64,000 nucleotides of DNA, from NCBI GenBank assembly GCA_963782485.1, contig CAWAJV010000007.1, forward strand, positions 596,677 to 660,676, given 5' to 3'. The notes under the pieces were generated by a model. It was not told the origin of the DNA. It worked only from the letters and a program-made list of their open reading frames with translations, and ran no database searches. The position numbers were made by a program, and so were the translations under genes. Each line of letters opens with the position of its first letter. Positions within the stretch are counted from its first letter, which is position 1. Positions 1,269 to 49,161 of this stretch are shown here, in pieces. Source of the stretch: an uncultured Actinomycetota bacterium. GTDB lineage: Bacteria > Actinomycetota > Actinomycetes > Frankiales > Frankiaceae.

Positions 1269-2054
1269 TCAACTCGCGGCCGTGTCGTGCCTCTCGGCCG
1301 GCGACCCGCGCTCGGACTCGCCGCGCTCACCGAGGGGAAAGACCTTCGGGACCACCTCGTCGACCTGCTGGCGCATGGCCGCCCGGAAACTGGCGAGCAA
1401 CGCCTGGCCGGCGATGGGGACCAGAGCCGCGATCGTCTCGCGCATCTGCTCCCACTCCTCAGCGGGCATGCCACGCTCGACGAAGTCACGCCACACCGTC
1501 GAGGCGATGAGGTCGACGAACACCCGGGCGACGGCGCGCGCGTGTTCGGTCACCAGCGGGCCGACCGCGAGGACCGCTTCGGCCGGCACCCCGAGCCCGA
1601 TGACCTGCTGCCCCGCGTCCAACAACTCCGGCTGCAGCAGCCGCACCCGGCCGTTCGGCAGGAGCTCGACGACCCCGCTGCTCACCAGCCGTTCGAGCAG
1701 TGCCGGGTCGGGCGGCACGCCGGCGCGAGCGGCGAGCGCCACCGCGTCCAGTTCCTCCTCGGCCTCCGGGCGCCACGGGTCACGGACCGTGCGCAGCATG
1801 GCCAGCGCGAGGGTGGCGGAGCGCGTGTCGGCCGCGAGCACCCGCTCGACGGCCGAGAGAGTCAGTCCCTCCGCCAGGAGGTCACGCACCAGGCTCAGCT
1901 GCTCGACGTGTTCGCTGTCGTAATACCCGGTGCGCCCGACCAGGCGCGGCGGGGTCAGCAGGCCGCGCGCCGCGTAGGCCCGCACATTGCGCACCGTCAT
2001 CCCGACCTCGCGCGCGAGCTCGTCGACGGTCAGCTCGTCGGGTCGCCTGGGCAC
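1269..2054 (-). CDS. MerR-family transcriptional regulator
   Basis: N-terminal HTH (MTVRNVRAYAARGLL) followed by a long effector domain. The C-terminal tail (GERGESERGSPA) is encoded by a degenerate copy of the 62-bp repeat. Confidence 0.85.
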   Translation of the reverse strand: MPRRPDELTVDELAREVGMTVRNVRAYAARGLLTPPRLVGRTGYYDSEHVEQLSLVRDLLAEGLTLSAVERVLAADTRSATLALAMLRTVRDPWRPEAEEELDAVALAARAGVPPDPALLERLVSSGVVELLPNGRVRLLQPELLDAGQQVIGLGVPAEAVLAVGPLVTEHARAVARVFVDLIASTVWRDFVERGMPAEEWEQMRETIAALVPIAGQALLASFRAAMRQQVDEVVPKVFPLGERGESERGSPAERHDTAAS

Positions 2055-6309: not shown

Positions 6310-7269
6310 ATGCGCCGCCGTGTACCGCCCGCCGCCCTGGCTCTCGTCACGGCAAGCCTTCTCGCCGCGTCAGCCTGCTCCTCTGGCGGCGGGGCCAGCC
6401 CGACCGCCACAGCCGGAGCGCGGGCGGACCCGCCGCCCTCGCCCTCCGCGTCACCCACACCCACACCCACGCCCACGCCGCCCCCTACCCTGCCGCGCGG
6501 TGGGCGCGTCATCTTCCCGCGCTACCGCGTCGTCGCCTATTACGGCGGCAGCGACGGGCCCGGGCTGGGCGTGCTCGGAGCCGGAACGCCCGACCAGGCC
6601 GCGGAAGCGGTCGAGCGGCAGTCCCGGCTGTTCGCCGTCCCCGGTCGCCCGGTGCTGCCGGCCATGGAACTGATCACGACGGTCGCGCTCGCCTCACCTG
6701 GCCCGAACGGCATCTACTCCTCTCCCGGGGATCCGGCGGCAGTGCAGCGCTACCTCGCCGCCGCCCGCCGCCACAAGCAGCTGCTCGTGATGGACTTCCA
6801 GCCCGGGCAAGGCGATTACCTGACCCAGATCAAGCGTTTCGAGCAATTCGTCAAGCAGCCCGACGTGGGCGTCGCGCTCGACCCTGAATGGCACATGCGG
6901 CCCGGGCAGATCCCCGGCCAGGTCTTCGGGTCGTCGTCAGCCGCCGATGTCAATGCGGTATCGAGCTACCTGGCGCAGCTGGTGCGCCGCTACCGGTTGC
7001 CCCAGAAGCTCTTCATCATTCACCAGTTCCGGCAGTCGATGCTCCCGGACCGCCAGCTGATCGTCGCCCGCCCGGGGCTCGCGACCGTCTTCCACGCGGA
7101 CGGCAACGGCGTGCCGGCCGACAAGGTTCAGGTGTACAACCTGCTGGCCTTCCCGGGTCCGCCGTTCCGCCGCGGCTTCAAGCTCTTCTACACGCGCGAT
7201 GTGCCTTTGATGTCGCCGCAGGAGGCGCTGGCCCTCGTGCCACCGCCCGATCTCGTCACCTACCAGTAG
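6310..7269 (+). CDS. Secreted lipoprotein of unknown function (Pro/Thr-rich linker followed by a globular domain)
   Basis: Start chosen at the Met preceding a signal peptide and lipobox (LLAASAC). PTPTPTPTPPPT linker. No recognisable catalytic motif. Confidence 0.55.
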   Translation: MRRRVPPAALALVTASLLAASACSSGGGASPTATAGARADPPPSPSASPTPTPTPTPPPTLPRGGRVIFPRYRVVAYYGGSDGPGLGVLGAGTPDQAAEAVERQSRLFAVPGRPVLPAMELITTVALASPGPNGIYSSPGDPAAVQRYLAAARRHKQLLVMDFQPGQGDYLTQIKRFEQFVKQPDVGVALDPEWHMRPGQIPGQVFGSSSAADVNAVSSYLAQLVRRYRLPQKLFIIHQFRQSMLPDRQLIVARPGLATVFHADGNGVPADKVQVYNLLAFPGPPFRRGFKLFYTRDVPLMSPQEALALVPPPDLVTYQ

Positions 7270-7292: not shown

Positions 7293-8045
7293 ATGAACGT
7301 CACCATGCAATGCGGCACCGAGATGCTCGCCGGTCACGGTGGTGACGAGATCGAGACGTACGTGGCGCTCCCGGCCGGGCCAGCGGCTGACGGTCCGGTG
7401 CCGGGGGTGGTCGTGATCCACCACATGCCCGGCTTCGACGCGGCTACCAAGGAGATCACCCGCCGGTTCGCCTCGCGTGGCTACGCGGCCATCCTGCCCA
7501 ACCTGCACTACCGCGAGGCACCCGGCGCCGAAGCCGACGACGCCGCTGCCGCCAACCGGGCAGCCGGCGGGGTGCCCGACGAGAGGCTGACCGGCGATGT
7601 CCAGGCCGCCGCCGCTTACCTTCGTGGCCTGCCCGGGTCAAACGGAAAGGCGGGCACGATCGGCTACTGCTCCGGCGGGCGGCAATCCTTTCTCGCCGGC
7701 TGCACCGCCGGGGTCGACGCCGCTGTCGACTGCTACGGCGCGTTCGTCGTCGGCGACGCGCCGGAATCCTTCCCGATTGCGATGCCCTCGATCGTGCACC
7801 TGACCCCGCAGCTGGGGTGCCCGCTGCTCGGCATGTTCGGCAACGAGGACAAGGCTCCCTCGCCGGAGCAGGTCGACGTGCTCGAAGCCGCGCTGCAGGC
7901 CGCAGGCAAGGAGTACGAGTTTCACCGCTACGACAACGCCGGCCACGGCTTCTTCGCGGTCGACCGGCCCATGTACCGCCAGGCCGCGGCCACGGACGGA
8001 TGGGTCAAGATCTTCGACTTCTTCGGCCGCCACCTCGCGGCCTGA
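7293..8045 (+). CDS. Dienelactone hydrolase family protein
   Basis: Alpha/beta-hydrolase; nucleophile motif GYCSGG; C-terminal His. RBS GAGGAAG upstream of the ATG at 7293. Confidence 0.85.
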   Translation: MNVTMQCGTEMLAGHGGDEIETYVALPAGPAADGPVPGVVVIHHMPGFDAATKEITRRFASRGYAAILPNLHYREAPGAEADDAAAANRAAGGVPDERLTGDVQAAAAYLRGLPGSNGKAGTIGYCSGGRQSFLAGCTAGVDAAVDCYGAFVVGDAPESFPIAMPSIVHLTPQLGCPLLGMFGNEDKAPSPEQVDVLEAALQAAGKEYEFHRYDNAGHGFFAVDRPMYRQAAATDGWVKIFDFFGRHLAA

Positions 8046-15613: not shown

Positions 15614-16945
15614 ATGCACCTGCACAAGCCCCACCTCCGCTCCTCCGGCTCCCAGCCGAGCACTGACCTGGACTCCCGCTCCGGTCAGCGACGCGAGCCA
15701 GACCGCCCCCCGCGCCGGCCGCGCGTCACCTTCCGCCCCTCTGCGGTGTTCACGTGGCTCTTCGTCACCCTCGTCATGGTGACCGGCCCGCTGCAGCTCG
15801 CCGTCCCGGATCAGGGCAGCTCGGCGTACTTCTCGGCCGCAGGGCTGGGTGGCCTGGCCGTCGTCGGAGCGCTCATCGTGGCCGAGCTCCGGCGCGCCCG
15901 GCGCATGGCGCAGGCCGGGCTCGACGTGGAGCGCGTCGAGGTGGGCCTGTTGCGAGCCCGCACGGTCGCTACCGGCGAGGTTTCGACCCCCGGAGGACTC
16001 CGGCGCGTCAGCTGGGCAGGTCCCCTGACGCTGGCCGCGACGGCGGCGGTCCTTGCCGCAGCCGGCGGACTCCTGCTCCTATCGGGTTCGCACGGTTTCC
16101 GGCTGCTGGCTGCTTCCGCGCTGTTCTCCGCGATCGGTATCGCCTCACTCGCGATCGCTGACCTGATCCCGGCCCCGGGCTCGCCCGGCAGCCAGCTGAT
16201 CTTCGCGCGCGCCTGGCGGCGCAGCGGGCGGCGCGACACCGCGCTCGCCCCGACCGCCCGTGCTGGTGTCATCAGTGGCTGGGCGTTGATCGTGGCCGGG
16301 TTCGTGCTGGTGACGTTCGTGAGCCTGGCCGGGCTCTGGGTCGGCCTCATCGGGGCTGCTGTCGTCGCCGGCTCGCGGCTCATGCTGGCCGGCGCGCGCA
16401 CCCGAGAGCGCCTCACCGGGCTCCGCGCCACTGACGTGATGTCGGCCGCCCCGCCGGAGGTGTCGTCCTTCGCCACGGCCGGTGTCGCATTCTCGGATGT
16501 GGCCCTGCCCAGCCGGGCCGACCTGCTCATCGTTCGCGACCCGGACGGCAGCCTCGGCGGGATCGTCTCCACCCAAGCACTCGCCGCCGTCCCGGGCGAT
16601 GATCGCGAGCTGGTCCGCGTGCGGCGCCTCGCGATCGCGGCGGGCAACATCCCGATCGTCGGCCCCGACGAGCCGATGGAGCAAGTACTCGAGCAGCTGG
16701 CGGCGCGCCCGCTCGCCGGGGTCGCACTCGTCGTCGATGAGGCGGCCGTCGAGTCCTTCGCGGGAGTGCCGCAGGTCGTCGGCATCATCACCCCCGCTGA
16801 CGTCGCTCGAACCGTCTCTCTCATGGATGCGGCCAACCCGGGCCGGCGCGGCGGCGGTCCCAAGAGGCCCGGTGGGTTCGGTGGATCCGGTGGCTCCGGT
16901 GGCGATACCGGCAACCCCTGGGCGCGCAAGAATCCCTTCGGGTAG
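15614..16945 (+). CDS. Membrane protein with a C-terminal CBS-domain pair
   Basis: Start at the internal Met (MHLHKP) just after a low-GC spacer. Multiple TM helices, then two CBS-like segments. The Gly-rich tail overlaps the start of the repeat array. Confidence 0.65.
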   Translation: MHLHKPHLRSSGSQPSTDLDSRSGQRREPDRPPRRPRVTFRPSAVFTWLFVTLVMVTGPLQLAVPDQGSSAYFSAAGLGGLAVVGALIVAELRRARRMAQAGLDVERVEVGLLRARTVATGEVSTPGGLRRVSWAGPLTLAATAAVLAAAGGLLLLSGSHGFRLLAASALFSAIGIASLAIADLIPAPGSPGSQLIFARAWRRSGRRDTALAPTARAGVISGWALIVAGFVLVTFVSLAGLWVGLIGAAVVAGSRLMLAGARTRERLTGLRATDVMSAAPPEVSSFATAGVAFSDVALPSRADLLIVRDPDGSLGGIVSTQALAAVPGDDRELVRVRRLAIAAGNIPIVGPDEPMEQVLEQLAARPLAGVALVVDEAAVESFAGVPQVVGIITPADVARTVSLMDAANPGRRGGGPKRPGGFGGSGGSGGDTGNPWARKNPFG

Positions 16946-16966
16946 GGGCTTTCTCGGCCCGCCGCC

Positions 16967-17199
16967 GGCGACCCGCGCTCGGACTCGCTCCGCTCGCCCG
17001 AGTCACGATCCCCCATACCCATGGTCGGCGACCCGCGCTCGGACTCGCTCCGCTCGCCCGAGTCACGATCCCCTCCATACCCATGGTCGGCGACCGCGCT
17101 CGGACTCGCTCCGCTCGCCCGAGTCACGATCCCCTCCATACCCATGGTCGGCGACCCGCGCTCGGACTCGCTCCGCTCGCCCGAGTCACGATCCCCTCC
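16967..17199 (+). repeat. Tandem array of about 3.8 copies of a 61-62-bp repeat unit (GGCGACCCGCGCTCGGACTCGCTCCGCTCGCCCGAGTCACGATCCCCTCCATACCCATGGTC)
   Basis: Copies at 16967-17026, 17027-17088, 17089-17149 (1-nt deletion) and 17150-17199 (truncated). Each unit has an internal GACTCG/CGAGTC stem and ends in CCATGG. Confidence 0.85.
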
Positions 17200-17203
17200 G
17201 ACG

Positions 17204-17230
17204 CCCGGGCAGGGCCCATCCCTGCCCGGG
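17204..17230 (+). other. Strong GC hairpin (11-bp stem CCCGGGCAGGG, loop CCCAT) immediately after the repeat array
   Basis: Seen in sequence; no U-tract. Possible factor-independent terminator or structural element. Confidence 0.35.
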
Positions 17231-17316
17231 CGCACCACCCGCACTCGCAACGCTTGATCGACCCTGCACGTTCTGCCACTCCTGCTGGCCGTCTCTTTGA
17301 CCGGAAGGTCTGACAC

Positions 17317-18432
17317 ATGCATGTTTCCCTCTGGGCCTGGGCGGGCTTCGCTGTATTCGTGACGGCGGCCCTGATCCTGGACCTGCGCAACCACCGCAAC
17401 CCCCGCGCCGTCGAGTTCAGGGAAGCCCTGCGCTGGTCGGGCTTCTGGCTCGCGATCGGCTTCGGCTTCGCGGGGCTGCTCTGGCTCACGCACGGCGGCA
17501 CGGCGGCCGCCGAGTACACGTCGGCGTACCTGCTCGAGAAGAGTCTCGCCGTCGACAACCTGTTCGTCTTCGCCTTGATTTTCAGCTACTTCAAGGTGCC
17601 GAGGGAGTACGAGCACCGGGTGCTGTTCCTCGGCGTGGTCGGTGCCCTCGTGTTCCGGGCGATCTTCCTCGCGGCCGGCGTCGCCGTGGTCAGCGCGTTC
17701 GAGTGGGTCTTCTTCGGTTTCGGCGCGTTCCTCGTCTACACCGCTCTGAAGCTGGCGAAGGACGGTGGCGAGCCTGACGTCGACCCCTCCAAGAGCCTGG
17801 CCGTCCGGTTGCTGCGGCGCCTGTTCCCGGTCGCAGACGAGTACTCCGGCCAGAAGATGCTGGTGCGCCGCGCCGGCGTGCTGACGGCCACCCCGCTGCT
17901 GGCGGTCGTCGTTGCCATCGAAGCGGCTGACATCCTGTTCGCCGTCGACAGCGTGCCAGCGGTGCTCGCCGTGAGTGACGACCTGTTCATCGTCTACACG
18001 TCGAACGCCCTCGCGGTGCTCGGCCTGCGCGCGCTCTACTTCTGCCTCTCCGGCCTGCTCACCCGTTTCCACCTGCTCAACAAGGGGCTGGCCGTCGTCC
18101 TCGGCTTCGTCGGACTGAAGATGCTGATGCAGGCCACGCAGCACTACGTACACGGCTTCCCGACCGTGCCGACCGCACTCTCGCTCGCTGTCATCGTTCT
18201 GGTGCTGGCCGGGGCCGTCGTCGGTTCCCTGCTCTTGCCGAAGCCGGACGACGCGGGTGAGCTGGGTGGGACCGAACCGCTGGCCGACGGATCGGTCGGT
18301 GCGCGAGAGCGGGACGATCTCGGTTCCCGAGCCGTTGTCGGAGCGGGATATGGAGGCGATCGCGACTGGGACGAGCGCAGCGAGTCACAGCGCGGGTCGC
18401 TGACCACGAAGCTGGAAGGTGATCGGCGATGA
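17317..18432 (+). CDS. TerC-family integral membrane protein
   Basis: Hallmark TerC segments (YLLEKSLAVDNLFVFALIF; two homologous halves). RBS GGAAGG. The C-terminal about 30 aa are encoded by a reverse copy of the 62-bp repeat. Confidence 0.85.
   Translation: MHVSLWAWAGFAVFVTAALILDLRNHRNPRAVEFREALRWSGFWLAIGFGFAGLLWLTHGGTAAAEYTSAYLLEKSLAVDNLFVFALIFSYFKVPREYEHRVLFLGVVGALVFRAIFLAAGVAVVSAFEWVFFGFGAFLVYTALKLAKDGGEPDVDPSKSLAVRLLRRLFPVADEYSGQKMLVRRAGVLTATPLLAVVVAIEAADILFAVDSVPAVLAVSDDLFIVYTSNALAVLGLRALYFCLSGLLTRFHLLNKGLAVVLGFVGLKMLMQATQHYVHGFPTVPTALSLAVIVLVLAGAVVGSLLLPKPDDAGELGGTEPLADGSVGARERDDLGSRAVVGAGYGGDRDWDERSESQRGSLTTKLEGDRR
18344..18406 (-). repeat. Reverse-orientation single copy of the 62-bp repeat (about 80% identity) at the 3' end of the TerC gene
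   Basis: The reverse complement aligns to the array unit. Confidence 0.6.
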
Positions 18433-36906: not shown

Positions 36907-37385
36907 TGAGTACCGCACCGGCAGGATCGGCGCTCGCCGGCCGGACCGAGGCGATCGGCGAGGCCCAGCGCGCGATGTCGGAGCTGCTCGGTGCCGAGCG
37001 CCGGCTGCGCGCCCGTGACCAGGGCCAGCGCGACCGCATGACCTACGCGCAGAGCCGGGCGCTGATCGCGCTCGCCGAAGTCGGCGGCACCGAGGCCGAT
37101 GTCAGCGCGGGCCAGCTGGCGCGCGCCGCCGATCTGCATCCGGCCTCCGTGACGGCCATGCTCGACCTGCTGGAGGAGCAGGAGCTCGTCGTCCGCCGGC
37201 GGTCACCGCTCGATCGGCGCAGCGTGCTGGTGGCTCTGACCCCCGAGGGCCAGGCCTTGCTGGATCAGAAACGCGCCGAGTGGCGCGCGCGTTGGGAAGA
37301 GGTGTTGGACGGGGTGCCTGACGAGGACATCGCCGTGGCTGCCCGCGTGATGCAGCGGCTAGCTTCCGTCTTCGTTAGTGGCTGA
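36906..37385 (+). CDS. MarR-family transcriptional regulator
   Basis: wHTH (DVSAGQLARAADLHPASVTAMLDLLEEQELVVRRRSPLDRR). Overlaps the MFS stop. Confidence 0.8.
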   Translation: MSTAPAGSALAGRTEAIGEAQRAMSELLGAERRLRARDQGQRDRMTYAQSRALIALAEVGGTEADVSAGQLARAADLHPASVTAMLDLLEEQELVVRRRSPLDRRSVLVALTPEGQALLDQKRAEWRARWEEVLDGVPDEDIAVAARVMQRLASVFVSG

Positions 37386-38630
37386 CTTAGGGGCTGACTT
37401 GGTGGCTGACTTGGTGGCTGACGCTCCAGCGGCGGGTCCGGCGGACGGCACCGCCTCCGGCTCGACGGCGCTCGCGGTCGCGGCGTCCGGCGCCAACTCG
37501 GACTCGGCCACGGCCGCGACCTCGGCCACGGCCGCGGCCGCGACCTCGGACTCGGGCGGCGCGTCCGGTTTGTGGCGCAGCTGCCACTCCAGCCGCGCGT
37601 AGGACCCGAAGCCGATCGGGATCGGCAGCCAGAAGCTCAAGAGCCGGAAGGCCAGCACGCCGAGCACGGCGATGCCGCGCGGCGTATCGAACGCCACCAG
37701 CGCGGGGACCAGGATTCCCTCGACGATCCCGAGACCGCCAGGGGTGATCGGGAGAGCAGCCGCGACGTTAGCCAGCCCGTAGGCGACCAGCAGCCCGATC
37801 GGGCCGAGAGTGTGGCCGAAGGCGCGCACGCACGCCCAGAGCGCCATCGCCTCCAGCATCCAGTTGAGCAGTGCCCAGAGGATGAGCCGGGCGAGGAAAC
37901 GGCGGTCGGCAACCAGCCGGCGGATCGTGCCCGCCAGGGTCGCCACGAGGCGGCGTCCGGCTTCGGCGTCCACCTTCGGCACCCGGTTGAGCAGCTTGAC
38001 GACCATGCGCGTCAGCCGGTTCTCGGAATGGGCGATCAGGATGCCGCCGCCGGTAGCGACGACGATCAGGATCAGCCCGACCGCAGCGACGGGCCCGTAC
38101 AACGGGTTGCTGCCGTGGATCACGAGCGCGGCGATGAGCGCGCCGCCGAGGAGCAGGTTCAGCACGACGGCGGAGCCGACCGTCTGCAACGCCTTACCGG
38201 TGACGGCGCGCTCGGGCGGGACACCGGACCGGGTGAGGAGGCGGTAACCCAGGCCGATGCCCACTGCTGAACCGGCGGGAACGACATGGCTGACGGCCAG
38301 GGTCGAAAGGTCGATCCGCAGCAGCTGGCTGTAGGAGATATCGCGGGAGTCGAGCGAGACCTGACTCAAACGGGCGTACGCGAGCAGGGACAGGACCTGT
38401 GCGAGCGCGGCGGTGGCCATCCACAGCGGCGAGATGTCGCCGAGCAGGCTGGCAGATTTCCGCGCGCCCGCGATCTGCGGTAACAGCGCGAATTCGACGA
38501 CGGCGGCAACGATCAGCAGCCGGATGGCCGGCCCCGCGATGCGCCGCAGGAGCGTCCACCAAGGGCGCCGTGCACCCTCGCTGGCCTCCTGCGCCCCGCG
38601 CGTCGCGAGCTCCGTCGGCATCTGAGACAT
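37359..38630 (-). CDS. UPF0104/LPG-synthase-TM-type flippase-like membrane protein
   Basis: 8 or more TM helices with the characteristic central PxGxG region (LPITPGGLGIVEG). C-terminal tail SATKSATKSAPKSAT from 12-bp tandem repeats. Confidence 0.7.
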   Translation of the reverse strand: MSQMPTELATRGAQEASEGARRPWWTLLRRIAGPAIRLLIVAAVVEFALLPQIAGARKSASLLGDISPLWMATAALAQVLSLLAYARLSQVSLDSRDISYSQLLRIDLSTLAVSHVVPAGSAVGIGLGYRLLTRSGVPPERAVTGKALQTVGSAVVLNLLLGGALIAALVIHGSNPLYGPVAAVGLILIVVATGGGILIAHSENRLTRMVVKLLNRVPKVDAEAGRRLVATLAGTIRRLVADRRFLARLILWALLNWMLEAMALWACVRAFGHTLGPIGLLVAYGLANVAAALPITPGGLGIVEGILVPALVAFDTPRGIAVLGVLAFRLLSFWLPIPIGFGSYARLEWQLRHKPDAPPESEVAAAAVAEVAAVAESELAPDAATASAVEPEAVPSAGPAAGASATKSATKSAPKSATNEDGS

Positions 38631-47627: not shown

Positions 47628-47878
47628 TTCCAGCGGAAGTGCACGAAGACGCGTCCGAAATTCTTCGAGTCCTTCTCCACCCGGTGATACAGCGGCTTGA
47701 TGTCCTTCTGCTCGAGGAAACGCAGGACGTGTTTCTTCAGAGCACCCGAGCCCTTCCCAGGGATGATCTCGACGAGCGGCGCTTTCTTGGCCACCGCCTC
47801 ATCGATGACGGCCCGCAGCGCCCGGTCGATGTCGCCCCCACGGTTGTAGATGTCGTGCAGGTCGAGCTTCAGCTTCAT
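47624..47878 (-). CDS. Stand-alone Smr-domain protein (84 aa)
   Basis: Smr fold pattern (LDLHDIY ... IIPGKGSG ... LKK.V). The start codon lies inside the terminal CATGG of a repeat copy. ATGA overlap with the GMC gene. Confidence 0.65.
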   Translation of the reverse strand: MKLKLDLHDIYNRGGDIDRALRAVIDEAVAKKAPLVEIIPGKGSGALKKHVLRFLEQKDIKPLYHRVEKDSKNFGRVFVHFRWK

Positions 47879-47940
47879 GGCAGAGGAGATCGTGACTCGA
47901 GCGAGCGCAGCGAGGTCGAGCGCGGGTCTGCGACCATGAG
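47876..47940 (-). repeat. Reverse-orientation copy of the 62-bp repeat immediately upstream of the Smr start codon
   Basis: The reverse complement aligns with the array unit (about 80%). Confidence 0.55.
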
Positions 47941-47994
47941 TACGACCCTTCCTCGAAGCAGGTGCACGCCCCGGCGAATTACTTGTACAGTTCG

Positions 47995-48190
47995 CGCAGC
48001 CCCAGCATTGCGGTGGGGTGACGCAAGGTCCAGCGAAGCCGGTGAGATCCCGGCGCTGTCCCGCAACGGTGATGCCCCTCGGGGACGAGCCCGGACGCCT
48101 GTCTTGTGTCGACGACTGTCCTCGGAGGAAGGGCGGTTCGTTTCGGCGCGGGCTTCCGCGCCGCAGCGGGCTTGCTTCACGCTCCCCGCT
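47995..48190 (+). ncRNA. Cobalamin (AdoCbl) riboswitch
   Basis: Contains AAGG..AGCGAAGCCGGTGAGATCCCGGCGCTGTCCCGCAACGGTGA, matching the B12-element core (GCCGGTGAnAnTCCGGCgCtGtCCCGC-aaCgGTaA). Sits upstream of a BtuF-like binding-protein gene. Confidence 0.7.
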
Positions 48191-48204
48191 CACACGGAGG
48201 AACC

Positions 48205-49161
48205 ATGCGGCCGCTTCGGCGCCGATTCACCCTCGCTGTCACCGCCGTCACCGTCGCGACGGTGGCCGCCTGTGGCAGCAGCACCACCGGGGCGTCTTCG
48301 TCGGTCAGCCCTTCCGGCGCGTCCGGCGCGGCCCGCGCCGCCAGCTTCCCGGCCACCGTCAATGCCAACGGCACGACGGTCACCATCAAGCAGAAGCCGA
48401 CTGCCATCGTCTCGCTGTCGGCCACAGCGACCGAGATGCTCTACGCCATCGGGGCCGGAAGCCAGGTCAAGGCCGTCGATCAGTACTCCAACTACCCGCC
48501 CGCGGCGCCGAAGACGAAGCTCTCCGGCCTGCAGACCAATGTCGAGGCGCTCATCGCCGAAAAGCCCGACCTGGTGCTCGTCGATGCGGACCGCAACGGC
48601 CTGGGCAAGCGGTTGGCCGCACTGTCGATTCCCGTGCTCGTGCTCCCGGCCGCCACGGCCATCGATGACGTCTACGCGCAGCTCGACGAGCTCGGCACCG
48701 CCACCGGCCATGCGTCGGAAGCGACGAAGGAAAGCGCCGACCTCAAGAAGAACCTCGCCGACATCGTCGCATCCGTGAAGAAGCCGAGCACCCCGATCAC
48801 CTACTACTACGAGCTCGAGCCCGACTACTACTCCGTCACCTCCTCGACGTTCGTCGGCAAGCTCCTCCGCCTGATCGGCATGAGGAGCATCGCCGACAAG
48901 GCCGCGGACGCCACCTCCACCGGCGGCTACCCGCAGCTGAGCGCGGAGTACATCATCAAGGCGAATCCGGACGTGATCCTGCTGGCCGACACCATCTGCT
49001 GCCAGGCGAGCGCCGCGACGGTGGCCAAGCGGGCGGGATGGTCCACGATCACCGCCGTGTCGAAGGGTGAGGTGATCCCGTTGAGCGACGACATCGCCTC
49101 GCGTTGGGGTCCGCGCATCGTCGACCTGGTCAAGACCGTCGCCGACGCGGTCAAGGGCTAG
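48205..49161 (+). CDS. ABC transporter substrate-binding lipoprotein, cobalamin/siderophore (BtuF-like) class
   Basis: Signal peptide plus lipobox (VATVAAC). Class III SBP pattern. RBS GGAGGA. Confidence 0.85.
   Translation: MRPLRRRFTLAVTAVTVATVAACGSSTTGASSSVSPSGASGAARAASFPATVNANGTTVTIKQKPTAIVSLSATATEMLYAIGAGSQVKAVDQYSNYPPAAPKTKLSGLQTNVEALIAEKPDLVLVDADRNGLGKRLAALSIPVLVLPAATAIDDVYAQLDELGTATGHASEATKESADLKKNLADIVASVKKPSTPITYYYELEPDYYSVTSSTFVGKLLRLIGMRSIADKAADATSTGGYPQLSAEYIIKANPDVILLADTICCQASAATVAKRAGWSTITAVSKGEVIPLSDDIASRWGPRIVDLVKTVADAVKG

Follow-up and report, generated by a model that had tools for sequence, protein, structure and literature searches.

Repeat copies and their neighbours in the window

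The terC gene of a Frankia-like soil actinobacterium is followed by a pucR-like gene and preceded by a CBS-like gene, and copies of a short repeat occupy both its upstream spacer and its 3' end. In the 64-kb stretch of DNA that was analysed here (the window), the same repeat also occurs at the start codon of an Smr gene and, as a partial copy, in the 3' end of a MerR-like gene. The repeat is a genuine but rare family of hairpin-forming units of about 60 bases. Its copies and the associated features are as follows.

1291..1335, minus strand: partial copy with inner stem, loop and 3' arm (blastn, exact core hit, covariance model)
16959..17202, minus strand: head-to-tail array of four units (Tandem Repeats Finder; covariance model, 57-80 bits)
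17141-17202, 17080-17140, 17018-17079 and 16959-17017, minus strand: the array units (covariance model)
17124..17189, minus strand: mini-ORF of 21 codons, GTG...TGA, product MTRASGASPSAGRRPWVWRGS (script translation, sequence)
17201..17233, no strand assigned: perfect 12-bp G+C hairpin adjoining the GGAG end of the array (sequence)
18349..18410, plus strand: complete single copy in the orientation of terC and pucR (covariance model, 78.1 bits)
18429..18432, plus strand: ATGA overlap of the terC stop (18430-18432) and the pucR-like start (18429-18431) (ORF list, sequence)
47875..47937, minus strand: mini-ORF of 20 codons, MVADPRSTSLRSLESRSPLP, on the Smr strand (frame check, sequence)
47879..47940, plus strand: full single copy at the Smr start codon (covariance model, 74.5 bits; sequence)

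The window thus contains a four-unit array, two full single copies and one partial copy, and nothing further. An initial annotation had proposed a 62-bp dispersed repeat family, and this proposal was confirmed. Tandem Repeats Finder located 3.8 copies (97% matches) at 16966-17199, with a unit length of 61-62 nt. Minus-strand matches to this unit were found at 18346-18419 (E about 3e-15 with blastn and 3e-6 with nhmmer) and at 47883-47942 (about 3e-15 and 6e-6), along with a shorter plus-strand match at 1296-1331 (1e-7 and 0.055). The copy previously placed near 1299 represents only about two-thirds of a unit. The degenerate core GACCCGCGCTNNNNCTCGCNNCGCTC was present without mismatches at all six places, where shuffles gave an expectation of 0.03 hits. 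When a covariance model trained on 12 copies was used to scan the whole 64 kb, only the six full units (57-80 bits) and the copy at 1.3 kb (13.9 bits) rose above noise, the latter scoring so low because its 5' arm is missing. As had been claimed, the copies are placed at gene boundaries, the nearest ORF start or stop being within about 90 nt at all four loci; two of the copies are on the plus strand and two on the minus strand.

No Rfam family matched the repeat, either at the gathering threshold or at a permissive E-value. A blastn search of PLSDB plasmids and a pattern scan of viral contigs also yielded no matches and no parent insertion sequence, and a literature search on the element's own sequence strings gave none. 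These results agree with the earlier view of a MITE/REP-type dispersed family that has no named counterpart. A protein search with the translated array returned no hit, and this peptide is evidently rarely emitted by gene callers.

Structure of the repeat unit

The strand on which the unit is structured is the opposite of the one chosen in the initial annotation, which used the less informative strand and recognised only the inner part of the hairpin. On the structured strand, the unit is about 58-62 nt long and consists of GGAG, two unspecified nucleotides, GATCGYGACT, a stem, the loop GAGCGNAGCGA, the returning stem and AGCGCGGGTC..CGACCATGA. The GGAG is Shine-Dalgarno-like, in 7 of the 12 copies the GYGA tetranucleotide contains overlapping GTG start and TGA stop codons, and the 3' end, CGACCA(T/N)GA, often yields ATGA or GTGA. 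Terminal inverted repeats are present, and their 5' arm GCAGATCGCGACT and 3' arm AGCGCGGGTCTGC make up the basal helix. The GACTCG/CGAGTC hairpin described previously forms the inner part of this structure, but the real helix is an imperfect one of 19-21 bp that spans nearly the entire unit. The CCATGG that had been regarded as terminal proved to be the unit junction of the terC array only, and does not mark a fixed end of the unit.

An alignment of 12 distinct copies, drawn from several genomes and from metagenome contigs, needed no internal gaps. In this alignment, 95.6% of the cells of a 21-pair hairpin were paired, as compared to 32-37% with slid partners, and RNAalifold independently predicted 19 of these pairs. 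Double-sided changes were observed at seven pairs, a level of covariation that none of 500 shuffles reached. Five of the covarying pairs fall at Ns of the search pattern and two more lie outside of it; the covariation was therefore not imposed by the search. The 11-nt apical loop is invariant, while the sequence of the stem varies and covaries. In 5 of the 12 copies the GTG start is changed to GCG with the base pair retained, which indicates that the hairpin is better conserved than the mini-ORF.

RNA folding of the GGAG strand gave -22 to -32 kcal/mol (z -0.8 to -3.8), as compared to -14 to -22 kcal/mol (z +0.7 to -1.2) for the opposite strand. Many stem pairs are U-G or G-U, and it is because of these pairs that only the GGAG strand folds well. 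With DNA energy parameters, the strand asymmetry vanished.

Junctions occupied by the element

The spacer that separates the CBS-like gene from terC contains the array, whose structured strand is antisense to both genes. Folding of 16940-17320 gave -211.7 kcal/mol (z -5.9) for the minus strand versus -147.8 kcal/mol (z -0.8) for the plus strand. The window is collinear with the syntenic loci L042 and L044, at 70-83% nucleotide identity. Upstream of terC, the spacer measures 372 nt here versus 103 and 61 nt in two array-less syntenic relatives, and the array region contains 334 nt more than that of L042. The mini-ORF at 17124..17189 is the sole intact 21-codon mini-ORF of the array; GGAGG is found 5 nt upstream of it and its TGA stop overlaps the GTG of the next unit as GTGA, and the chain of mini-ORFs is broken by a 1-nt deletion in that next unit. 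A CRISPR array was ruled out, since no spacers separate the head-to-tail units. The adjoining hairpin at 17201..17233 produced only spurious miRNA-like Rfam alignments, which reflect its palindrome, and no T-run terminator call, and scans for terminator and promoter consensus sequences around terC found nothing. The yybP-ykoY riboswitch (RF00080) had no match in the window at the gathering threshold and none in 16900-17400 at E up to 10. Together with the 61-103 nt that syntenic relatives have at this position, these scans confirm the earlier remark that terC lacks such a leader.

The second copy at terC (18349..18410) is contained in the variable 3' tail of the annotated ORF, where it encodes ...GYGGDRDWDERSESQRGSLTT..., and it ends 18 nt before the overlap of the terC stop and the pucR start. 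Its RNA fold reaches -28.0 kcal/mol (z -3.0). The block between aligned segments in this tail is 68 nt longer than in syntenic L042, and the motif DRDWDERSES was found in none of the 25 closest TerC homologues inspected. A similar arrangement was seen at the MerR-like gene (1269-2054, minus strand), with which the partial copy is co-oriented and which reads through it to give the tail GERGESERGSPAERHDTAAS. This copy has 35 nt at 89-91% identity to array units, and homologues of the MerR-like protein align only as far as about residues 233-240 of 261. That the repeat forms the C-terminal tail of TerC and, as a degenerate copy, the 3' end of the MerR gene, as had been suggested, is thus upheld in both cases by an ORF that reads through the repeat into a non-homologous tail. 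For annotation, the element accounts for odd C-terminal tails and ORFs that are called too long, and for breaks in assembly where such arrays occur in these genomes.

The covariance-model hits also confirmed that terC is flanked by copies in opposite orientation. We rejected a composite-transposon-like bracketing by these inverted copies, since terC holds the same syntenic position in relatives that lack the repeat. L039 was rejected as a second example of bracketing, its contig carrying a large inverted duplication.

The copy at Smr lies in a divergent region, with Smr on the minus strand and a cobalamin riboswitch and BtuF-like gene on the plus strand, and its structured strand is antisense to Smr. 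CATG occurs at both of its edges (47876-47879 and 47935-47938), 59 nt apart. The mini-ORF at 47875..47937 starts at the upstream ATG copy, behind the displaced Shine-Dalgarno sequence GAGGAAGGG (47946-47954), and its TGA stop overlaps the Smr ATG to form ATGA; the ORF at 47875..48180 (minus strand) ends ...LMVADPRSTSLRSLESRSPLP. The idea that the repeat supplies the Smr ATG was not sustained. The same 84-aa protein with the identical start was found at the other Smr loci inspected, where an SD-like motif precedes the start by 8-12 nt and the element is absent, the Pfam alignment of Smr starts at residue 5, and the element as delimited by the covariance model starts 1 nt past the ATG. The Smr ATG is ancestral, and the element was apparently inserted at this start codon. 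The element separates the ATG from its Shine-Dalgarno sequence, and the 20-codon mini-ORF with its ATGA overlap would re-couple both, a natural case of a start-codon insertion bridged in this way. The same copy is present in L045, a 94.7%-identical relative, and absent from syntenic L047, where the spacer is about 60 nt shorter. A near-identical empty site was not found for this copy, the sole close relative (L045) carrying it and the other Smr loci being too divergent.

The array at terC, the copy in the terC tail and the one at Smr are all missing from syntenic relatives and are therefore lineage-specific insertions. The initial annotation had gone further and described the repeat as actively reshaping gene ends; the evidence extends only to this lineage-specific presence or absence.

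An exact-core scan of species genomes found true members in only three, namely the La2 Mycobacteriales MAG, a Frankiaceae MAG and an uncultured Actinomycetota MAG, and exact-core scanning identified six soil metagenome contigs with the element. Copy number seems very low outside the window. Pattern scanning of the genome collection returned 33 loci, of which only L007, L019, L024 and L027 match beyond the pattern; the others were dismissed as chance hits in G+C-rich coding DNA, and L036 from the metagenome scan was likewise a chance hit.

In two MAGs the element occupies the zwf-opcA junction, where the zwf stop is within the GTGA of the element and a mini-ORF, or a chain of 62-nt mini-ORFs, ends in ATGA or GTGA on the opcA start. 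At an ssb-rpsR junction, the ssb TAG adjoins the GGAG of the element. Lineage-specific insertion is clear at these two junctions, at the Smr start and in the terC tail. A mini-ORF that is co-oriented with the flanking genes and overlaps them with its start and stop is present at the zwf-opcA junctions of L019/L007 and L024 as well as at Smr. This arrangement is not seen in the window array, L027b or L037; in the latter two, the GTG frame finishes elsewhere than on the start of the next gene. The number of units at one shared junction is one in L024 versus at least four in La2. L027 carries a half-unit array, made up of two 5' halves followed by six 34-nt 3' halves; we therefore rejected the idea that one copy is nested within another's loop at this locus.

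Relationship to known repeats and origin of the element

MIRU-type repeats have been used in tuberculosis typing since the late 1990s and, to our knowledge, their origin, mobility and function are still unexplained. PMC12548453 and PMC3184786, which summarise Supply et al. (1997), describe them as intercistronic repeats of 40-100 bp, with ORFs that overlap the flanking genes and with 4-nt direct repeats, and as thought to insert at start codons with a -4 spacing. The element resembles them in its unit of 59-62 nt, present singly or in variable-number head-to-tail arrays, in its intercistronic position at terC-pucR, zwf-opcA and ssb-rpsR, in its imperfect terminal inverted repeats and in its apparent insertion at a start codon (Smr). 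It also has an internal SD-like motif and a mini-ORF that, at some junctions, makes 4-nt start/stop overlaps with the neighbours. However, its host is Frankiales-like and not Mycobacterium, and some of its copies are antisense to their neighbours. With regard to spacers, the promoter region that houses the Smr copy is divergent, and the array is placed between co-directional genes that may be co-transcribed. CATG flanks the Smr copy, and other copies show different repeats. The corresponding sites of relatives are shorter and element-free, at 70-83% identity too divergent for exact boundaries.

The element and MIRU292 of M. avium have the 11-mer GAGCGCAGCGA in common. Nevertheless, a comparison with this one canonical MIRU gave no statistical support for homology (p of 0.08-0.37 for local alignment and of 0.03-0.77 for the two-block test). 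MIRU292 also lacks the whole-unit hairpin and folds to -15.7 kcal/mol on both strands, with no strand asymmetry. The family, judged by this unit, is independent of MIRU in sequence and belongs to another actinobacterial lineage, yet has the same junction-hugging design. To this design it adds a well-supported structure, with a covarying stem and invariant loop that fold well only as RNA, and clear lineage-specific insertions at defined junctions.

Some likeness was also found to MAPK_TR_3, a tandem repeat with a 57-bp unit in M. avium subsp. paratuberculosis K-10 (PMC7977185, Table 1). Both ends and the basal stem are as in the element (GGAG-GATCGCGA ... GCGGGTC-CGACCAT), the same strand folds better (-25.8 vs -19.0 kcal/mol), and two-block similarity had p 0.003-0.03. 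In contrast, an apical part CGGGC-GAA-GCCCG replaces the GAGCGCAGCGA loop. A relationship, judged from one published unit, is suggestive but not established.

The REP/BIME elements of proteobacteria are imperfect palindromes of 20-40 nt that bear a conserved 5' tetranucleotide and are linked to RAYT transposases; they number in the hundreds and are frequently paired in inverted orientation. They can shield upstream mRNA and adjust how strongly the genes of an operon are expressed relative to each other. The element is likewise a short G+C-rich extragenic or intercistronic hairpin, but it is 58-62 nt long, lacks a GTAG-like head, is single or head-to-tail and was found in few copies in other genomes. 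Delihas (PMC2759123 and PMC3184786) and, for Coxiella, PMC5896051 deal with MITEs of bacteria and with small mobile sequences that contain ORFs or lengthen proteins. Like these, the element is apparently non-autonomous, has terminal inverted repeats, is located at gene ends and can be read through, adding peptide tails to host proteins. It differs in lying near the lower limit of MITE sizes and in having no known parent insertion sequence and no consistent target-site duplication, the copies showing variously CATG, GGAGA, TAG..GGAG or TGGARG.

We consider it probable that the element is a small non-autonomous hairpin-forming interspersed repeat of the MIRU/REP/MITE kind, carried by this Frankiales-like soil actinobacterium and a few relatives. 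Its copies would be mobilised in trans by some enzyme, would land on translation start and stop junctions, and would then expand locally into variable-number tandem arrays. Insertion may be tolerated through the frames across the element, most of which are stop-free, so that the upstream ORF would just be extended; alternatively, a mini-ORF of about 20 codons may bridge the insertion, its 4-nt stop/start overlap preserving translational coupling. Transcription in the structured orientation would give an mRNA hairpin of -22 to -32 kcal/mol, which, judging from REP elements, probably modulates the 3' stability of mRNA or the relative expression of neighbouring cistrons. Because the array and the Smr copy are antisense to neighbouring genes, such an mRNA-level role is impossible as a role for every copy. 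No transposase, no high-identity empty/filled pair and no consistent target-site duplication were found, which counts against this reading.

An immobile origin could take two forms. The hairpin might be a host cis-regulatory RNA motif, its invariant 11-nt loop acting as a site of protein or RNase binding or of processing, that is selected in place and tunes expression between adjacent cistrons. Covariation involving G-U pairs, which function in RNA alone, a constant loop on a variable stem, the orientation of most copies along an adjacent gene and the retention of the zwf-opcA copy in two divergent MAGs are all consistent with such a motif. We nonetheless regard both its immobility and its selection in place as unlikely, given that copies sit beside unrelated genes (among them terC, merR, smr, zwf-opcA and ssb-rpsR), presence or absence differs among syntenic relatives, tandem copy number varies and half-unit arrays exist, certain copies are antisense to neighbours or inside coding tails, and no Rfam family matched. 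The copies might instead be relics of local duplication, slippage or gene conversion, or degraded ends of a larger insertion sequence. Copies tens of kilobases apart in one genome, unrelated loci in at least five other genomes or metagenome contigs at 77-90% identity, compensatory stem changes, which argue for selection on structure, and three independent lineage-specific gains relative to syntenic relatives make this very unlikely, even though the full and half-unit arrays show active slippage and a consistent target-site duplication was not found. It seems equally improbable that the junction features are by-products of high G+C, with its stop-free frames and common ATGA/GTGA overlaps, although mini-ORF conservation is incomplete among copies and about a quarter of co-directional gene pairs overlap regardless (PMC12548453).

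Two other readings were weighed. The element could be REP-like and mobilised as ssDNA by a RAYT or an IS200/IS605-type Y1 transposase encoded elsewhere, with hairpin and loop as the recognition structure. The strand-specific hairpin with its conserved loop and covarying stem, the extragenic and junction positions and the stabilisation of upstream mRNA by REPs (PMC3184786) all suit this possibility. It is made highly doubtful by the loss of strand asymmetry under DNA energy parameters, the absence of a GTAG-type 5' tetranucleotide and of inverted-pair (BIME) organisation, the apparently low copy number and the even orientation in the window (two plus, two minus), hence no replication-strand bias. 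Finally, the element could act as a portable translational coupler under selection, with copying perhaps proceeding via an RNA intermediate, in which case a trans-acting factor (reverse transcriptase, recombinase or RNA-binding protein) would read the loop and direct insertion at junctions. We give this reading little credence, but retain it because of the G-U pairs that form only in RNA, the invariant 11-nt loop on a covarying stem and the junction positions. If true, it would offer a way to approach the mechanism, so far unsolved, by which MIRU-type repeats move.

The closest named homologues of the flanking genes' products were from Frankiaceae (69%), Motilibacter and Jatrophihabitans for TerC and from Frankiales MAGs for Smr. 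The tails of most close TerC homologues likewise end ...R, which would be compatible with a similar stop/start junction.

Copies of the repeat and their hairpin

The initial annotation had placed a dispersed repeat family at gene edges, and the family, its coordinates and its gene-edge position were confirmed by Tandem Repeats Finder, blastn and nhmmer searches, a core scan and a covariance model. In the window (69.7% G+C), one strong array and three separate matches were found:

16966-17199: tandem array, period 61-62 nt, 3.8 copies, 97% matches (Tandem Repeats Finder)
18346-18419, strand opposite to the array unit: near-full copy, blastn E ~3e-15, nhmmer 3e-6
47883-47942, strand opposite to the array unit: near-full copy, blastn E ~3e-15, nhmmer 6e-6
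1296-1331: shorter match, blastn E 1e-7, nhmmer 0.055

A degenerate 20-base core common to all copies matched the window at exactly these six places, where 0.03 matches are expected in shuffled sequence. The covariance model, trained on 12 copies and run over the window with filters off, gave 57-80 bits for the six full units and 13.9 bits for the 1.3-kb copy, and no further copies in the window rose above noise. The repeat match annotated near 1299 was thus upheld (blastn E 1e-7), but as about two-thirds of a unit rather than a full one.

The alignment of 12 distinct copies was free of internal gaps. On the structured strand, which carries GGAG and is opposite to the unit described initially, the consensus was 5'-(TAG/ATG)GAG-NN-GATCGYGACT-[5-7 variable]-GAGCGNAGCGA-[5-7 variable]-AGCGCGGGTC-NN-CGACCA(T)GA-3', with 34 invariant columns that include the 11-nt centre. 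RNA folding of this strand predicted one long hairpin of -22 to -32 kcal/mol (z -0.8 to -3.8), as compared to -14 to -22 kcal/mol (z +0.7 to -1.2) for the other strand. The internal GACTCG/CGAGTC hairpin that had been annotated is present, but folding of the units and the 12-copy alignment showed it to be only the inner part of this longer structure. The same asymmetry was seen for the RNA fold of the whole spacer upstream of terC (-211.7, z -5.9, versus -147.8, z -0.8).

A 21-pair helix laid on the 12-copy alignment had standard pairs in 95.6% of cells, as compared to 32-37% when partners were slid by 1-3 columns, and seven of its pairs showed double-sided changes. The observed covariation score was reached in none of 500 shuffles, and RNAalifold independently predicted 19 of the 21 pairs. 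This covariation was not imposed by the searches: of the seven covarying pairs, five stood as Ns in the search pattern and two fell outside it. Numerous U-G/G-U pairs (columns 12-48, 15-44, 20-40, 22-38 and 23-37) become A-C mismatches on the other strand, which explains the asymmetry of folding; when DNA energy parameters were used, the strands no longer differed and most of the stability was lost. Thus, the modeled hairpin looks like a feature of RNA.

Elsewhere in the window, a 12-nt tandem repeat (TTAGTGGCTGAC, 4 copies, 37375-37422), unusually A+T-rich for this genome, is followed by a 24-nt repeat of 2.5 copies (37497-37555); both are unrelated to the 62-nt family.

Lineage-specific gains at gene edges

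The element occupies start/stop junctions, and three of its sites in the window are lineage-specific gains. The terC locus shares its gene order (response regulator, histidine kinase, CBS-like protein, TerC, PucR-like regulator, GH15) with a locus, L042, of the MAG 'Mycobacteriales bacterium La2_metabat2.010' (La2), whose TerC is 81% identical to that of the window, and with a second relative, L044. Both are collinear with 13.0-22.4 kb of the window at 70-83% nucleotide identity. The CBS-terC spacer measures 372 nt in the window versus 103 nt in La2 and 61 nt in L044. Relative to L042, the window is longer by 334 nt in the unaligned block at the array and by 68 nt in that at the end of terC, and no significant covariance-model match to the element was found in either relative's terC locus. 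Within the array, only the first unit keeps an intact mini-ORF.

The 18.3-kb copy lies in the orientation of terC within its variable tail-coding region and ends 18 nt upstream of the ATGA in which the terC stop overlaps the pucR-like start. The initial annotation had proposed that the repeats add C-terminal tails, and at the ORF level this was borne out: the terC frame runs through the copy without a stop and gains ~20 residues. Among the 25 closest TerC homologues inspected, not one has the resulting DRDWDERSES motif; their variable tails mostly end in ...R, endings compatible, from sequence, with a similar stop/start junction. The MerR-like gene (Pfam MerR_1) likewise reads through its partial copy, and homology to other proteins stops at residues ~233-240 of 261, directly before the repeat-encoded GERGESERGSP, which supports the same claim.

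Three minor features adjoin these copies. Adjoining the array (17201-17233) is a perfect 12-bp G+C hairpin (GCCCGGGCAGGG / CCCTGCCCGGGC) with a 5-nt loop and without a T-run, which neither syntenic relative has; it may serve the upstream gene as a terminator or belong to the inserted DNA. In the terC-tail copy, the 5' arm (TGGAGGCGATCGCGA, 18351-18365) resembles the native terC/pucR junction downstream (TGGAAGGTGATCGGCGA, 18413-18429), so that an imperfect direct repeat of ~16 nt lies on both sides of the copy; this repeat could stem from a further, incomplete unit or from a long target duplication, or amount to no more than two Shine-Dalgarno (SD)-plus-start motifs. On the minus strand (1237-1300), the extended MerR-like ORF ends with a TGA inside a TTGACA-like hexamer, followed by an A+T-rich stretch just upstream of an AurF-family oxygenase gene; the extension therefore overlaps a likely promoter or operator of that gene.

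At the Smr gene, the proposal that the repeat supplies the ATG did not hold. An 84-aa protein with the same start is the common form among 120 listed matches, the Pfam Smr domain alignment begins at residue 5, and in the other Smr loci inspected, which carry no element, an SD-like GGGAG/GGAGG precedes the start by 8-12 nt. The junction in the window reads ...GAGGAAGGGTCGTACT-CATG-[element]-CATG-AAG; an SD with an ATG is now found 59 nt ahead of the Smr ATG. A 20-codon ORF (MVADPRSTSLRSLESRSPLP) begins at this upstream ATG and traverses the element, its TGA overlapping the Smr start as ATGA. MIRUs are thought to insert at start codons, the repeat ORF then being coupled to the gene with -4 spacing (PMC12548453); the Smr copy has the same arrangement, but on the element's unstructured strand. 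In the syntenic La2 locus (BtuF-like gene, riboswitch, Smr), the spacer is ~60 nt shorter and the element is missing. The Smr copy is present in a contig, L045 (ENA ERZ25039483 contig_68550), with 94.7% identity to the window across 6.2 kb (44.6-50.9 kb). This contig derives from a sister strain or species, whose genome would be ideal for filled/empty-site comparison across the remaining genome; its ENA sample also yielded the more distant L044. The 47.9-kb copy sits between Smr and a cobalamin riboswitch (RF00174, 46.1 bits, 48009-48120, plus strand) upstream of the divergent BtuF-like gene (periplasmic-binding, Peripla_BP_2, ~48106-49161).

Distribution, junctions and orientation elsewhere

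One NCBI/ENA protein, encoded on a 1.09-Mb contig, matches the window TerC at 100% identity; the closest named homologues are from Frankiaceae (69%), Motilibacter and Jatrophihabitans for TerC, and from Frankiales MAGs for Smr. In an exact-core scan that covered one genome per species, 33 loci were matched, with full elements in only 4:

L007 and L019, two contig ends of La2: tandem units at zwf-opcA (L019 1-145, L007 270-392; at least 4 units)
L024, Frankiaceae MAG: 1 unit at zwf-opcA (6349-6410)
L027, uncultured Actinomycetota MAG: several copies

A scan of JGI metagenomes, with five stem positions left free on each side, gave seven contigs, six of them with true members and all of these short. 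No element matches were found in plasmids, viral contigs, Rfam or, as sequence strings, the literature. As far as these genome, metagenome, plasmid and viral searches see, the family is rare and taxonomically narrow. An independent short-read assembly with an identical TerC protein (L001 1-33, Logan ERR11571143) starts inside the last array unit; such arrays evidently interrupt assemblies, and counts of copies from draft genomes and MAGs are likely underestimates. On one metagenome contig (L039 1780-2760), a large inverted duplication with one copy per arm is probably a fold-back assembly artefact, so its two copies are not independent.

Between zwf (glucose-6-phosphate dehydrogenase, G6PD) and opcA, the zwf frame ends in ...WRRP* within the element's TGG-AGR-CGA-CCG-TGA, the 5' arm encoding this conserved G6PD C-terminus with rare AGR/CGA codons. 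In L024, a GTG overlapping the zwf stop opens a 21-codon ORF that ends in ATGA at the opcA start; in La2, the visible units are GTGA-linked mini-ORFs, the last ending in GTGA at opcA. Hairpin pairing is largely kept in these copies, with one A-G mismatch in L024. In L027, a copy separates ssb (...DEPPF-type tail, TAG) from rpsR in the operon rpsF-ssb-rpsR-rplI, and in L037 the first bases of the element overlap the TGA of the gene upstream. In 5 of the 12 copies GCG stands in place of GTG, the base pair being kept, and in L027b (one L027 locus) and L037 the GTG frame has no stop on the next gene's start. Of the two features, the hairpin is better conserved; the coupling ORF is frequent, not universal.

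L027 also contains, at 7730-7985, the element's 5' half twice, followed by six tandem copies of its 34-nt 3' half (CAGCGAAGCCGAGCGCGGGTCTGCGACCATGAAG), at first taken for a nested insertion and actually a half-unit variable-number array.

The structured strand is plus for the 18.3-kb and 47.9-kb copies and minus for the array and the 1.3-kb copy, which indicates no replication-strand bias in the window. It runs in the direction of one or more neighbouring genes at 18.3 kb, at 1.3 kb and at five loci outside the window (zwf-opcA, counted once, L027b, L037, L038 and L041), and is antisense for the array and for the 47.9-kb copy relative to Smr. A co-orientation bias is suggested but not statistically secure.

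Nature and relatives of the element

The copies form a multi-copy family with subfamilies and variable-number arrays, including the half-unit array, and the basal helix constitutes imperfect terminal inverted repeats. We consider it probable that the element is an interspersed repeat of the MIRU/REP/MITE kind, non-autonomous and hairpin-forming. A cis-regulatory RNA of the host, selected in place, would account for the RNA-only pairing and the invariant loop; the unrelated gene contexts, the presence or absence of copies between relatives and the tandem arrays argue against it, and we regard it as unlikely. An origin as a REP/RAYT-type single-stranded-DNA element seems quite improbable, as does a set of non-mobile relics of duplication or conversion. 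REP/BIME and classical MITE features are shared only in part.

As an interspersed repeat, the element would be moved in trans by a separate enzyme and would persist by being nearly harmless, frames through it being mostly open. Since it imports GGAG together with GTGA/ATGA, coupling to the downstream gene would be kept by read-through or a bridging mini-ORF. By analogy with REPs, its hairpin in mRNA may alter 3' stability or the ratio of adjacent cistrons.

The element represents a known kind of repeat, but its sequence family is new and unnamed. Read-through repeats that add peptide tails are reported for enterobacterial small mobile sequences and Coxiella MITEs. Beyond the routine are the RNA-specific hairpin, well supported and with an invariant loop; the clean insertion at a start codon, bridged by a mini-ORF that ends in ATGA; and the occupation of core junctions such as zwf-opcA and ssb-rpsR. 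These points offer testable ways into the long-standing question of how elements of the MIRU type spread and what they do.

In how it works, the element most resembles MIRU. Two published M. avium units were compared (PMC7977185). Similarity to the one canonical MIRU292 unit was not significant (local alignment p 0.08-0.37; two-block test p 0.03-0.77); MIRU292 contains the exact 11-mer of the element's loop, GAGCGCAGCGA, but lacks the whole-unit hairpin and the strand asymmetry. Because of this, and because the host, unlike that of MIRU, is not Mycobacterium, filing the element as MIRU was rejected. MAPK_TR_3, an M. avium tandem repeat, has both ends and the basal stem in common with the element (GGAG-GATCGCGA...GCGGGTC-CGACCAT), folds better on the same strand and has a two-block similarity of p 0.003-0.03, a lead suggesting that related elements exist in mycobacteria.
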